Source: Candidatus Xenobia bacterium (GTDB taxonomy: Bacteria; Vulcanimicrobiota; CADAWZ01). Taken from it: a stretch of 64,000 nucleotides of DNA. The stretch covers positions 4,126 to 68,125 of the forward strand of contig JAVBNT010000038.1 in NCBI GenBank assembly GCA_031551355.1. Reading direction: 5' to 3'. The notes beneath the pieces are model-generated. The model did not search any database, was not told the origin of the DNA, and was given only the letters and a program-made list of their open reading frames with translations. Position numbers and translations under genes: made by a program. Within the stretch, counting starts at the first letter, position 1. The number at the start of each line of letters is the position of its first letter. Below, one piece after another: positions 48,432 through 54,280 of this stretch.

Positions 48432-49361
48432 TTATGCTTTTGGCGTTTCCGGTTTCGGAGGCTTTGGCGTCGGCTTCGGCGGTTTATGCTGTCCGGCTTC
48501 TTTGGCTTCTTTTACCAGTCTCGACTTTTCAATGACAGCTCCGGCTATTCCACCGGCTACGGCTCCGAGAGCGACTCCTATGAGTCCGCCGATTACAGTA
48601 TAGCCGACTACATTAACTCCGTTATCAAACTCTACCCTGGGTTTGTCATAATATCCCATATTGGTTTTCGTCAATGTCGGACTATATTTATGGTTGTAAC
48701 CTTTGAGCTCTTCGTTTAAGGTTACGTCTCCTTTGGCGTTTAGATCTTTGATGTCGGCTCCGCCGGTAATGGTTTTCAAAGTCGTCGTAACCGGTTTTAC
48801 TTCTTCGGAATATCCGCTTAGTGTATTTTGAACTATCGGCACTGACTCCTGCAGCACTTTCGGTTCGCCATAATTTTTGTAGGTGGCGCTTACTTCTCTC
48901 ATCAGAACTTTTCCGTCCTGCATGACGGGATTGTTTTCGATGACATCCTGCATAAGCTCAGGATGAGGCGATTGATCCGCCAGACCAATGCTGAAATATC
49001 CGGTCGGTATTTTACCAAGATTTTCCGGCTGCAATACCGGTTCCTGCCATGTTATTGTCTGCTCACCGATTTCATTGGAGGTTATTATTTTACGCTCTGC
49101 CAGGCTTTTTCCGTAAAGAGCTCCGCCGACTCCGCCGACGGCACCGCCGATGACAGCACCGAACCCTATGGATTGCTTGCCTCTTTCACTTAAAGGCAAG
49201 AGTGCGGTCATTTTTTTGTAATCACTGTTTGCCGGAGACCTTTCAACTTTATCTTCGGTATTCAACTGAGGGTTTTGCTGTTCTGCCTCAGCTTCTGTTT
49301 TTATGCCGGCCCTTCCGCTTAGAATTGCCGCTGCCGTTAAATTATTTCCTATTGAATTCAT
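48432..49361 (-). CDS. Paralog-family member P5: conserved N-terminal motif, two glycine-zipper TMs, and a Pro/Lys-rich C-terminal tail
   Basis: N-terminus 'MNSIGNNLTAAAILSG'. 'FGAVIGGAVGGVGGALYG' and 'VIGGLIGVALGAVAGGIAGAVI' are the zippers. Central 'WQEPVLQ...NPVMQDGKVLM'. Tail 'KPPKPTPKPPKPETPKA'. RBS GGGAGG sits 14 nt after the P4 stop. Confidence 0.6.
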   Translation of the reverse strand: MNSIGNNLTAAAILSGRAGIKTEAEAEQQNPQLNTEDKVERSPANSDYKKMTALLPLSERGKQSIGFGAVIGGAVGGVGGALYGKSLAERKIITSNEIGEQTITWQEPVLQPENLGKIPTGYFSIGLADQSPHPELMQDVIENNPVMQDGKVLMREVSATYKNYGEPKVLQESVPIVQNTLSGYSEEVKPVTTTLKTITGGADIKDLNAKGDVTLNEELKGYNHKYSPTLTKTNMGYYDKPRVEFDNGVNVVGYTVIGGLIGVALGAVAGGIAGAVIEKSRLVKEAKEAGQHKPPKPTPKPPKPETPKA

Positions 49362-49375
49362 ATCTTGGCCTCCCG

Positions 49376-51190
49376 TTATTGCTGCTGCTGCTGCGCTTCG
49401 TTTTCCTGCGCGCCCTGATTTTGTAATATGGCAAGTACGCCTTCAGCCATTACTGCCGTTAAATTGTCTTTCGCCATCTCAATTTGTTCAGAGATGAATT
49501 TGTCCTTGTTTTCTTTGCCCTTTATGTCTTTAAGCGGCTTTTTCAGCTCATTATAGACGGCACTGCTGATATTTTTTCTGAGTGCGTCAATTTCTTTCTG
49601 TTTTGTATTTAATTCTGCCAGACTCTGCGTCGACAAATCCTGATAAAACGCCGCTTTTTGTTCGTCAGTCATGCCCGCAAGCTGCGGTTCGATTTGTCTG
49701 AAAGCGTTGGCACACATGAAGTTGTTAATATCTTCTGTAGATGGGCCAAGTTGCTGCATTTTCTGGTCAAGATTTTTTGACTGGGTAATATCTTTGGCTA
49801 TTTTGGCAAACTTTACTCCACCGGCAACGGCGGAAACTACCAATGTCGCCGCTGCTCCTATCGGACCGAGAAGAGCTCCGCCGGCAACGGCCAACGGAAT
49901 GGCTCCGAGTGCTCCCGTAAGAGCTCCGACTGTCGTTAAGCCTTTTTCAACGCCAAGTTTATCAAGAACAAAGTCACTTACTTTGCCGGTTAACGGTTTT
50001 ATAAATTTTTGCACATCTGCGGTTAAGTTACGTATCGCCTGCTGGATTTTTGGCCCGGCTAACGCTCCTGCCACTGATGCCCCTGCTCCGATGACTGCTC
50101 CGGTAGCGATGCCTGCCGGTCCGGCAAATGAACCGGACACGGCTCCCAGGGCTGCGCCGGTAGCGGCAGATAAAGCTATTTTTTTAGCTTTGGATTCCAT
50201 ACGGGCACCGACTGCTCCGCCTATTGAAGCGGAAAGGTTTACCGCCGGTCCGCCGATTCCCGTAAAGGCTGTCGTTAGCATACCTGCCGTGAAGCCCCCG
50301 AAAGATCCGTCTCTTGTTTCTGCACGGCTGCTTCCTGATATTGTTGCCGTTGCTCCCGTCAGTCCGCCCATTAGAGCTGTCGAACCAAGTGCCAATCCTG
50401 CCGCGGCCGGGTTGGCAGATGTTGCTATCGCGGCAACGGCTCCGGCAACGGCTCCGCCTCCGGCGGCAAGCGTTGCTGTCAGTAACGACATTTTTGCCGT
50501 TTCTTTTGTTGTCGCGTTTTCAGAAAGTTTATCAGCGAAAGAAGAACCGGTCATGCCCCCGATTGCGCCGACTACTGCGCCTGCGATTGCCGTCACCGGA
50601 CCGCCGATTGCGCCCATGGCCGCACCTGTAGCGGCTCCTGCCGCTATCGGGGCCATTTTTTTGATAATGGATTTTGTTTTTGACAGTTCAACCGGTTTTC
50701 CCGATTCGTCTGTTTTTTGAATTTTTGAGTTCTGCAGTTTTTCTATCAGGGTTCCGGTTGCGCCGGCAACGGCTCCTGCTGCCGCCATTATTCCGATGGA
50801 AGCGAGTCCGGCTGCTCCTCCGGCGAGAGATGACGTGATTGCCGTGCTTGTAAGCAAGGCACCTGCTCCGACGGTAGAACCTGCAAGCAGCGCTTTGGTC
50901 ATGGAGCCTGTTTCTTCTCCAACCGAGACTCCGGCAAATCCAGCTCCGGCACCGGCTACTGCTCCGGGAATTCCTAAAGAGAAAAAGCCTTTTAGCGCCC
51001 CGCCCGTAGCAGCTGATTTTGGTGACGAGTAGGGCATATCGCCTGTTGTCTCAGGCCTGGGTTCAAAGTAATCGGCAATTTTCTGCAACGCGGAAGAAGA
51101 TTCTTTTGTCTCCACATTAACAACAGCCGCTTCCGGTTTAACCGAAGGTTGCTGCAGGGGTATATTGTTTGCATTACTTACAGAATTCAT
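49376..51190 (-). CDS. Paralog-family member P4: 604-aa Gly/Ala-rich multi-glycine-zipper protein with a C-terminal coiled-coil region
   Basis: Shares the N-terminus 'MNSVSNANNI'. More than 300 aa of GxxxG/AxxxA-type hydrophobic repeats. The C-terminus 'KQKEIDALRKN...QQQQQ'. The large plus-strand ORF at 49671..50720 is its mirror image. Confidence 0.6.
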   Translation of the reverse strand: MNSVSNANNIPLQQPSVKPEAAVVNVETKESSSALQKIADYFEPRPETTGDMPYSSPKSAATGGALKGFFSLGIPGAVAGAGAGFAGVSVGEETGSMTKALLAGSTVGAGALLTSTAITSSLAGGAAGLASIGIMAAAGAVAGATGTLIEKLQNSKIQKTDESGKPVELSKTKSIIKKMAPIAAGAATGAAMGAIGGPVTAIAGAVVGAIGGMTGSSFADKLSENATTKETAKMSLLTATLAAGGGAVAGAVAAIATSANPAAAGLALGSTALMGGLTGATATISGSSRAETRDGSFGGFTAGMLTTAFTGIGGPAVNLSASIGGAVGARMESKAKKIALSAATGAALGAVSGSFAGPAGIATGAVIGAGASVAGALAGPKIQQAIRNLTADVQKFIKPLTGKVSDFVLDKLGVEKGLTTVGALTGALGAIPLAVAGGALLGPIGAAATLVVSAVAGGVKFAKIAKDITQSKNLDQKMQQLGPSTEDINNFMCANAFRQIEPQLAGMTDEQKAAFYQDLSTQSLAELNTKQKEIDALRKNISSAVYNELKKPLKDIKGKENKDKFISEQIEMAKDNLTAVMAEGVLAILQNQGAQENEAQQQQQ

Positions 51191-51349
51191 AAATGATATA
51201 ACCTTTTATGCCACAGTACATTTTAATACTTATTGATATTATAACAAAGATCCTGATCGGTAGCCATTTTCTTTGTGTTAAATAATTATGAACACTTCAC
51301 TATCTTTAATTGTAAATCGGCTATTTGACGACATAATTTGTTAAGAATA

Positions 51350-51380
51350 TAAAAAACTGCCTTTTGATGGCAGTTTTTTA
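51350..51380. terminator. Hairpin flanked by A and T runs on both strands. It terminates P3 (minus strand) and may be bidirectional.
   Basis: 'AAAAAACTGCC-TTTTGAT-GGCAGTTTTTTA'. Confidence 0.5.
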
Positions 51381-53245: not shown

Positions 53246-53380
53246 AAAAAGATTGAAAATGCTTTGCTCCGTCATTTTTTGCTGTTATTTATCTTCATTT
53301 CTCATCCTTTCTAATGGTATTTGTCCGGCACATGCCGGGATTAGGCGCCTGCGGGCGCGAAGCTTTTATCATGTAAAAAG

Positions 53381-53404
53381 GGCCGCCGTTAGCACGACAG
53401 CCCT
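53381..53404 (-). repeat. Hairpin repeat family A' copy inside a larger 14-bp-stem palindrome
   Basis: The minus-strand sequence 'GGGCTGTCGTGCTAACGGCGGCCC' matches 16478..16501 except for one or two nt. It is flanked by 'CATGTAAAAAGGGC' and 'GCCCTCTTTACATG'. Confidence 0.4.
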
Positions 53405-53437
53405 CTTTACATGATAAATAATATGTGTCTGTTATTT

Positions 53438-54280
53438 TTAGGAGTTCATTGCCTTGGCAATTGCAGCACCTGCAATGCCGCCGGCTAAAGCTCCGACTCC
53501 TGCACCGGCGAGGACGCCGAGTGTTGTATTGAGCCCTACATTGACGCCTGTTTCAAATTTTACTTTAGGAACCTGATAGTTGCCTACTGTTAAATTTTTA
53601 ATATCCGGTGAGAATGAGTGCTGATAACCTTTTACTTCTTCACGGGTTGAATAAATTTCTCTGCCGTCAGCTGTTTTGCCTTCGTAGATTTGTTCGGTAT
53701 GGACATCTGTGTATACACTTTCATGATGTCCGGCCAGTTTGGATTGTTGAATATTTTTGGTATCCCAGCTTACAACCGGTGTCCCGTAGTCGGTGAAAGT
53801 TTTGGAAACGTCCTGCATAACCGGTTTGCCGTTTTGCATAACCGGGTTTTCCCTGTAAACGTCTACTGAGCCATGATTGCCCTGTATTGCGTTGATTACA
53901 CCGAAGATGTTTGCCGGCTGATAATAGTTTGCCGGAATGGAGCCAAGGTTTTCGCTTTTCATAACCGGCTGCTGCCAGTCAAGGCTTACACTGTTGATGT
54001 CATTGTTGGCTTTGACGGTGTTCATGGACATGTTGTATGCGATGATGCCGCCTGCAAGACCGCCGGCTACTCCGCCGATGGAAGCTCCGATGATGGCGCC
54101 TTTTTTGGAACTGTCGTTCATTTTTACAAAATCTGCTTTTGTAAGCTCTTTTGAAGATTCACTTTTCTGCAGTGTATCGTTAGTGTCGATTGATGCTGAA
54201 TTCTCTTTTGCGGCAGGAGCTGTTGTCGCAGTGTTTTTAAGAATTGAACTTGCCGTAATTCCTGATGATATGCTATTCAT
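53438..54280 (-). CDS. Paralog-family member P1
   Basis: 'MNSISSGITASSILKN', zippers 'GAIIGASIGGVAGGLAGGIIAYNMS' and 'LGVLAGAGVGALAGGIAGAAIAKA', central 'WQQPVMK...NPVMQNGKPVMQDVS...YGTPVVSW'. Own promoter-like TGATATAAT and an AAGGAG RBS. Confidence 0.6.
   Translation of the reverse strand: MNSISSGITASSILKNTATTAPAAKENSASIDTNDTLQKSESSKELTKADFVKMNDSSKKGAIIGASIGGVAGGLAGGIIAYNMSMNTVKANNDINSVSLDWQQPVMKSENLGSIPANYYQPANIFGVINAIQGNHGSVDVYRENPVMQNGKPVMQDVSKTFTDYGTPVVSWDTKNIQQSKLAGHHESVYTDVHTEQIYEGKTADGREIYSTREEVKGYQHSFSPDIKNLTVGNYQVPKVKFETGVNVGLNTTLGVLAGAGVGALAGGIAGAAIAKAMNS

Follow-up and report, generated by a model that had tools for sequence, protein, structure and literature searches.

Two unannotated, predicted membrane protein families with a common N-terminal tag and promoter layout in a five-gene array of Candidatus Xenobia

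GxxxG repeats and a packed helical hairpin are features of SlyB-type glycine-zipper proteins (PF05433), to which the Gly-zipper families PF13488 and PF13441 are related. Among type III secretion substrates, Tir has a non-hydrophobic N-terminal signal region and a two-helix hairpin with an exposed middle domain, and YopB/IpaB-type translocators combine hydrophobic segments with a coiled coil. Glycine-zipper helices are also present in the toxins CdzC/CdzD, Tse4, TelE and LXG-T2, where they are thought to insert into and perturb membranes (PMC12955049). Here we analysed a stretch of 64,000 nt (the window) from Candidatus Xenobia bacterium (GCA_031551355.1, contig JAVBNT010000038.1, positions 4,126-68,125 of the forward strand), whose parent contig is 84.5 kb at NCBI and is also assembled from SRR23967709. 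The window contains an array of five consecutive minus-strand open reading frames (ORFs), P1 to P5 (48432-54280), which had been picked out in an earlier sequence-only reading and were confirmed at exactly these coordinates by the ORF listing. These genes encode two rare families that have no annotation in the sources searched, and that have a conserved neighbourhood, a shared promoter layout and a shared N-terminal tag preserved at the peptide level. The evolutionary claims of the earlier reading fail, and those on function are left at the strength of each reading discussed below.

Four of the genes encode two-transmembrane (2-TM) glycine-zipper proteins. These are P1 (53438-54280; 280 aa), P2 (52271-53074; 267 aa), P3 (51404-52234; 276 aa) and the divergent P5 (48432-49361; 309 aa), which has a Lys/Pro-rich C-terminal tail. 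P2, P3 and P5 aligned end to end with P1 at 57, 59 and 34% identity, respectively, and the conserved islands DWQ.P, NPVMQNGKPVMQ, YGTP.VSW, GY.H.F.P and PKV.FETGVN, together with both GxxxG zippers, were common to all four, which bears out the single architecture first read from the sequence. Hydropathy analysis gave two segments of moderate hydrophobicity per protein (Kyte-Doolittle maxima of 1.5-2.1), with Lys/Arg enriched before the first and after the second, and both termini are therefore expected in the cytoplasm with the middle domain outside; this would be the periplasm if the envelope is diderm like that of the one cultured member of the phylum. An AlphaFold2 model of P1, built from a 48-sequence alignment (full-length pLDDT 82.8), agreed with hydropathy on the two TM helices of the sequence-only reading (~56-92 and 248-279), and also displayed a disordered N-terminus and an all-β core with pLDDT of ~97. 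That reading had placed a variable domain of ~180 aa between the helices, whereas the domain is ~155 residues long and is the best-conserved and best-modelled part of the protein. When modelled alone (P1 residues 92-248, 38 sequences) the core reached a pLDDT of 94.8 and a pTM of 0.75, and included two strands of ~36 residues each. A fold search with the full-length model matched helical hairpins only, and one with the core alone gave zero matches in the PDB or BFVD, the two databases to which the absence of a known fold applies; the domain is predicted to be rigid, elongated and all-β, with no PDB neighbour.

Over 26 sequences Gly65, Gly69, Gly73 and Gly77 of helix 1 and Gly259 and Gly263 of helix 2 were invariant, and the model packed the two zipper helices as a SlyB-like hairpin. 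Invariance of GxxxGxxxGxxxG on both helices (Gly at i, i+4, i+8 and i+12), along with a 2-TM, N-in/C-in arrangement and a large ectodomain as in other 2-TM channels, would suit homo-oligomeric ion or solute channels, in which zipper helices from several subunits line the pore and the paralogs have different specificities. This was the function originally suggested, and we consider it distinctly improbable.

The 2-TM family comprised 25 clusters at 90% identity among 5.8 billion proteins and 98 representatives at 50% identity among 1.84 billion proteins, with the top-scoring relatives coming from genomes titled Candidatus Xenobia bacterium and from rumen "RUG" metagenome-assembled genomes (MAGs). 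A second, alignment-seeded homolog search made almost no additions because glycine-zipper words saturated the candidate list, and a scan of metagenome contigs recovered two short loci only. Using tblastn, P1 had zero matches in 50,697 phage or 72,556 plasmid records, giving no sign that the family is phage or plasmid cargo. None of the public sources searched names any protein of either family. Members P0011-P0016 from rumen MAGs (loci L007-L011) have C-terminal tails of 100-150 residues with Pro/His/Gly repeats (HHPAPPPPPP, GGPKPP), which by the charge rule should be cytoplasmic; the tail of P5 is shorter. Distant representatives (P0070-P0113) are without the MNSISS tag described below and have an alternative motif, K.W[VI]K.N[IV]TG, before helix 1, while some bear a Cys-rich C-terminal extension (ICFKP...), which suggests a wider superfamily with exchangeable N-terminal modules. 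Their contigs were too short for gene context to be informative.

Searches of Pfam and NCBIfam with all five array proteins returned only sub-threshold glycine-zipper matches, located on the two hydrophobic segments. PF05433 scored 14.9-17.5 bits for P1, P3 and P5 (gathering cutoff 24.2 bits), and matched 7/48 aligned family members at E <= 0.01. PF13488 (Gly-zipper_Omp) scored 19.4-22.9 bits for the window proteins (gathering cutoff 25 bits) and has precomputed matches in some homologs, a borderline result confined to the helices, and NF033928 (ClyA/XaxA α pore-forming toxins) scored 21.4 bits for P5 (cutoff 125). Neither Pfam nor NCBIfam detected LXG, PAAR, RTX-type or type I secretion system (T1SS)-type domains in the array proteins. 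Matches in PHROGs were weak and on helices only, and sequence-profile searches of the PDB with both families gave only Gly/Ala-segment noise from prion, NDUFA11 and ClyA. Likewise, Tim17/Tim22/OEP16 (PRAT) and NDUFA11-type proteins are eukaryotic, four-helix and without a β domain, and were matched through low-complexity Gly/Ala helices only. Every score of the proteins and of the family alignment against the Pfam Gly-zipper families was below the curated cutoff, and with PADLOC also giving no characterised family, the earlier statement that no family could be named holds.

The structural likeness of the hairpin to SlyB and the glycine-zipper Pfam matches would fit SlyB/YfgH-like envelope stabilisers, which form oligomeric rings or nanodomains that protect the membrane under stress, with the β domain as a lineage-specific periplasmic add-on. 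However, unlike SlyB and the Gly-zipper lipoproteins, the array proteins have neither a signal peptide nor a lipobox, the N-terminal 58 residues being polar with no hydrophobic stretch and no Cys, and they carry this ~60-aa polar N-terminus as well as an inserted β domain of 155 residues where PF05433 has a short loop between its helices. Their scores lie under every curated cutoff, and a stabiliser function would leave both P4 and the N-terminal tag unexplained. We regard this alternative as unlikely.

P4 (49376-51190; 604 aa) is not a 2-TM paralog but a member of a second family, of 15 clusters. It is composed of 13% Gly and 18.5% Ala, and hydropathy analysis delineated approximately six Gly/Ala-rich hydrophobic blocks (residues 63-92, 99-152, 178-220, 231-284, 337-380 and 416-466), each of 30-55 residues, a length that would accommodate a helical hairpin, and after them a polar, helical C-terminal tail of ~140 aa. 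The motif DYFEPR near residue 40 was invariant in all P4 homologs, as were many Gly and Pro residues. The sole non-trivial library match, a borderline one, was in PADLOC to LeoBC of the dynamin-like Eleos system (E 4.4e-5), where P4 residues 398-581 (last hairpin and tail) align over a membrane hairpin and then helices. Assignment of P4 to LeoBC was rejected because P4 has no GTPase domain or GTPase Pfam match; the match is confined to the C-terminal 160 profile positions, under a third of the total, and a LeoA partner is absent. A PDB match of the P4 profile to ClyA (E 0.08) lay in a Gly/Ala-rich segment. Profile-profile comparison of P4 with the 2-TM family aligned 28 glycine-zipper columns only (61% probability), and common ancestry of the two families is therefore not shown.

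We found P4-like and 2-TM genes next to each other in other genomes. Locus L014 has the order 2-TM, 2-TM, P4-like, P5-like and L015 has P4-like then P5-like, so that P5 orthologs come after P4-like genes in both; in L016 a 2-TM gene is followed by a P4-like gene with 19 nt between them, and in L001 a 2-TM gene is convergent with a P4-like gene. Across the linked loci P4 identity falls to 29-38%, which indicates that the pairing is old. In two JGI contigs P4-like genes also adjoin unannotated 282-aa and 318-aa genes, whose identity as 2-TM genes is suggested by size only. In JGI 3300075153 contigs, P4-like genes are found near an ankyrin-repeat protein and PQQ β-propeller proteins; ankyrin repeats are common among host-associated bacteria.

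The array genes are separated by gaps of 363, 36, 213 and 14 nt in array order, with P3 beginning 36 nt past P2 and P5 beginning 14 nt past P4, and all five are preceded by a Shine-Dalgarno sequence (AAGGAG for P1 and P2). A repeat GTTAAT-N-TTTAAC followed ~32 nt later by an extended -10 element, TGnTATAAT, is present ahead of P1, P2 and P4 but not P3 or P5. On the minus strand, the P1 promoter region (54345-54400) has the inverted repeat GTTAATCTTTTTTTAAC, with TTAACA, 32 nt and then TGATATAAT; the P2 region (53131-53186) has GTTAATACTTTTTTAAC, with TTAACC, 32 nt and then TGGTATAAT; and the P4 region (51238-51293) has GTTCATAATTATTTAAC, with TTAACA, 32 nt and then TGTTATAAT. A strong bidirectional intrinsic terminator follows P5 (48404-48426; 9-bp stem, 5 GC pairs, T run). 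These features fit the transcription units previously proposed, with P1 monocistronic, P2 opening a P2-P3 unit, P4-P5 forming the third, and the array having its own promoters and terminator.

Within the window TTAACA-N30-33-TATAAT was observed 4 times against 0.06 expected, and 0/100 shuffles reached 4, while over the window and the fetched loci 9/13 matches to the layout were directly upstream of P1- or P4-family genes. Relaxed versions occur in genomes of 56-57% GC (GTTAACA-N32-TAGTAT at the L002 2-TM gene and GTTAAAC-N31-TATAAT at the L023 P4-like gene), so AT-richness does not explain the layout. The inverted repeat GTTAAT...TTTAAC, with mismatches allowed, was not significantly enriched (13 matches against 7.8 expected). 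An extracytoplasmic function (ECF)-sigma-type promoter was considered for the AAC motif and dropped on inspection, because there was no consistent CGT-type -10 at 16-17 nt. The shared layout may indicate a dedicated regulator. A fourth exact copy of TTAACA-N-TATAAT (59835-59877, plus strand) has no credible downstream ORF and faces the 3' end of a queD-like gene. This copy may have arisen by chance or may serve as a small-RNA promoter, and Rfam finds nothing there.

Outside the array, a unit at 34170-37105 (minus strand) consists of the promoter layout (37062-37105; TTAACA-N32-TGGTATAAT, as for P1 and P4), an acidic 107-aa ORF (36687-37010) and an 836-aa enzyme with four phospholipase D (PLD) domains. 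From its sequence this unit is possibly co-regulated with the array, and a promoter layout shared with a lipid-active enzyme would suit a membrane-remodelling regulon, a point in favour of the SlyB/YfgH-like stabilisers. The 107-aa ORF was considered as a secretion chaperone, and no match supported this.

The N-terminal region of the 2-TM proteins is a 58-residue module formed of MNSISS..TASSIL, an (I)DT.D.L.KS motif and a DF.K motif. A hidden Markov model (HMM) of the module retrieved all 2-TM paralogs and orthologs (E 1e-13 to 1e-21) and no other protein. The near-identical N-terminus that had been described for all five proteins thus stands for the 2-TM paralogs and not for P4, which begins MNSVS, has only its first 5-7 residues in common with them (MNS[IV]S) and is missed by the HMM. 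In Xenobia-type genomes P4 orthologs start with MNSISSG, MNSINS or MNNISS, and in more distant genomes with MD[AS]VK, MESIS or MDPLN, where the 2-TM proteins start with MD[ST]I; the starts are matched by lineage, and therefore the tag co-varies between the families.

A shared start could in principle reflect translation initiation or the mRNA in highly expressed genes, with no function for the peptide, since the first codons are A/T-rich in AT-rich genomes. However, genes differ in whether Ser3 has an AGC/AGT or a TCT/TCA/TCC codon, the peptide is retained over a genomic GC range of 31% to 57%, including genomes of 56-57%, and the motif spans 14 residues with two more conserved peptide motifs after it. 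The codon-family switches and the persistence over this GC range argue for selection on the peptide rather than the mRNA, and on the codon data the mRNA-level explanation is essentially excluded.

We examined where else such N-termini occur. In 233 kb of DNA the hexapeptide pattern marked 18 credible gene starts, 17 of them in the two families. The remaining start belongs to a subtilisin-family protease of L008 (Peptidase_S8, E 5e-59; 7345-8685, minus strand). This protease begins MNSIGSAGS, has a propeptide-like region and no Sec signal peptide, and is encoded ~1.3 kb away from a 2-TM gene. Another S8 peptidase without a signal is located near the 2-TM/P4-like pair of L016 (1552-2994). A composition filter requiring no Asp/Glu at positions 3-15, at least 48% Ser, Thr, Asn, Gln or Gly (STNQG) and no hydrophobic stretch passed 17/142 ORFs, namely 13 family members and four enzymes without signal peptides: the PLD protein of the window, an ATLF/M90-like metalloprotease in L001, the L008 subtilase and an α-amylase-family enzyme in L006. 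When STNQG was set to at least 50%, 0/45 window control genes passed. The mean acidic count at positions 3-15 was 0.03 in the family and 1.0 in controls, and the STNQG fraction 0.48 and 0.26, respectively, although such composition alone is not diagnostic of type III substrates. The L001 metalloprotease-like protein (8717-9784, plus strand; 355 aa, HExxH, weak ATLF/M90 Pfam matches) is directly upstream of a 2-TM gene; its N-terminus is polar and free of acidic residues, and a Gly/Ala-rich hydrophobic hairpin lies within the protein.

The PLD enzyme has an N-terminal extension of ~55 aa without a signal peptide that starts MNIGNLNFNF...ADVADISLSAS, and an amylase-family enzyme in L002 (5765-9106) starts MNIGDISFAS...DSVDISLSSG. 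These two N-termini are similar (z = 7.6, with 0/2000 shuffles reaching the score), although the enzymes are otherwise unrelated and come from different genomes. Ordinary exported proteins of these genomes bear classical signal peptides. For the proposal that the conserved N-terminus is a targeting or secretion signal, the support is circumstantial, and consists of peptide-level conservation, co-variation by lineage, and a similar hexapeptide or composition on signal-less hydrolases.

We also assessed how the paralogs have evolved. The DNA ends of P1 and P2 had been called near-identical, but identity was 86.7% over the N-terminal 15 codons and 78.6% over TM2, and use of the same codon for identical residues was no more frequent in the ends (10/15 and 12/26) than in the core (34/66). 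NG86 estimates gave saturated dS values of 1.4-1.9, with dN/dS of 0.19-0.26 over entire genes, 0.20-0.24 in the core and 0.09-0.17 in the helices, and values of 0.7-1.8 in only two loops (residues 123-137 and 203-207; 15-17 codons), which are the indel-rich, high-entropy and lower-pLDDT parts. Given the codon use, the saturated dS and the low dN/dS, neither recent duplication or gene conversion nor diversifying selection across the central domain, both of which had been proposed, is supported. Variability in the loops is real, although the ratios there come from sequences saturated at synonymous sites.

These data bear on whether the array encodes exported, membrane-inserting effectors or toxins. 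Here the tag would be a secretion signal for a dedicated machine, P4 would be translocator-like (hydrophobic hairpins and a coiled coil), the 2-TM proteins would insert into a target membrane as Tir-like hairpins or glycine-zipper pores, and the tagged hydrolases would be co-secreted. The N-termini are acid-free and Ser/Thr/Asn/Ile-rich, unlike all 45 controls, and the tag or its composition is found on enzyme classes that are normally exported and here have no Sec signals. Furthermore, a shared promoter layout drives genes scattered through housekeeping loci, hydrophobicity of the helices is no more than moderate, C-terminal tails rich in Pro/His occur in some homologs, P4 is extremely Gly/Ala-rich, and glycine-zipper toxins exported by T1SS and by the type VI and type VII secretion systems are documented (PMC12955049). 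Such toxins have known secretion domains or signals and neighbouring immunity genes, however, and the array has neither: there are no LXG, PAAR or T1SS-type domains, and no small ORF partner was listed in its intergenic gaps. No secretion machinery, type III included, was seen in the window and ~230 kb of related loci, neither sequence nor fold resembles Tir or YopB/IpaB, and the likeness to type III signals is one of composition only. The sole cultured phylum member is diderm with type IV pili and no flagella (PMC9758169), and a literature search found neither a phylum-specific secretion system nor a type III system for the phylum. Purifying selection (dN/dS ~0.2) and a conserved core are also atypical of polymorphic toxins, and on balance we judge an effector function possible but rather unlikely.

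The explanation that we tentatively favour, at somewhat less than an even chance, is a membrane complex with a sorting tag. The array would represent two co-inherited, co-regulated integral membrane protein families specific to the Xenobia lineage of Eremiobacterota, with P4 as a chain of approximately six Gly/Ala-rich hairpins plus a helical tail. The zipper helices may drive a hetero-oligomeric membrane complex of P4 and 2-TM subunits, which would display a palisade of β domains. The extreme N-terminus (Met-Asn-Ser-Ile-Ser-Ser, then an acid-free Ser/Thr/Asn-rich stretch) may serve in sorting or assembly as a peptide-level tag, recognised by a factor that would also handle the tagged, signal-peptide-less hydrolases. 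The five proteins would then be clients of a lineage-specific, Sec-independent sorting route and possibly also its membrane-embedded part, with the cell's own inner membrane, its outer membrane or another cell as candidate destinations.

Several observations weigh against this membrane complex and its tag. Binding of P4 to the 2-TM proteins is something that we infer, no 2-TM gene adjoins the P4-like gene of L023, and many 2-TM genes stand alone amid housekeeping genes. The link from tag to enzyme is weak: a full 58-aa module on P4, the PLD protein or the S8 protease was rejected, as the HMM detected none of them, and similarity between the array and enzyme modules was marginal (z of 3.1 for PLD-P1, 1.7 for S8-P1 and 2.7 for P4-P1). 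For the amylase-family enzyme a cytoplasmic function in glycogen metabolism is conceivable, which would speak against export, and the lack of any export machine in the 64-kb window and ~230 kb of related DNA counts here as well. The topology is based on hydropathy, charge bias and AlphaFold2, and the envelope type is taken from a distant cultured relative.

A bolder version of this sorting scheme is improbable in our view. In it, an undescribed Sec-independent route of Xenobia would read a polar tag (M-N-S/I-I/G-..., acid-free, then a short acidic D-x-[LIV]-x-x-S motif) and export the signal-less subtilase, PLD protein, amylase-family enzyme and metalloprotease under a dedicated promoter element, with the P4/P5 pair and the 2-TM paralogs as a membrane conduit or as membrane-inserting cargo.

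As the sequence-only reading had it, the array is set between housekeeping genes, with a molybdenum hydroxylase and its FAD subunit upstream, and a class-V aminotransferase (Aminotran_5, SerC-type) and a TPR protein downstream. Elsewhere the window carries ordinary chromosomal genes (RecA, RNase Y, FabH/D/G, MutS2, an ECF sigma factor, PASTA kinases and a pseudopilin), and Rfam detected two tRNAs and nothing else. Three neighbouring PASTA-domain genes (57771-58769, 60302-62380 and 62857-63363, minus strand), one a full PknB-type Ser/Thr kinase, together with RNase Y and a GerM-like protein give the window a Firmicutes-like flavour, yet the cultured relative is diderm. The P4 region forms a 56% GC spike due to the Gly/Ala codons of P4, and a 349-aa antisense ORF opposite it (49671-50720, plus strand) is a shadow ORF of these GC-rich codons and not a gene; several further long ORFs antisense to array genes have the same origin and are not genes either.

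The cell biology of Eremiobacterota, and especially of the host-associated class Xenobia, is almost unstudied, and this locus yields two unannotated families, a confidently predicted β domain without a PDB neighbour, a conserved cis-regulatory element and a short N-terminal tag. Should the tag not be a sorting signal, the 2-TM proteins would still be a well-delimited new domain family, fit for a Pfam entry and for structural study. The aspect of most interest is the tag as a possible sorting signal, which reaches beyond the coordinates of the array. If it is one, proteins exported by this uncultured gut lineage could be catalogued from sequence by means of the tag, and a mode of export or assembly outside the known secretion-system types would be indicated.

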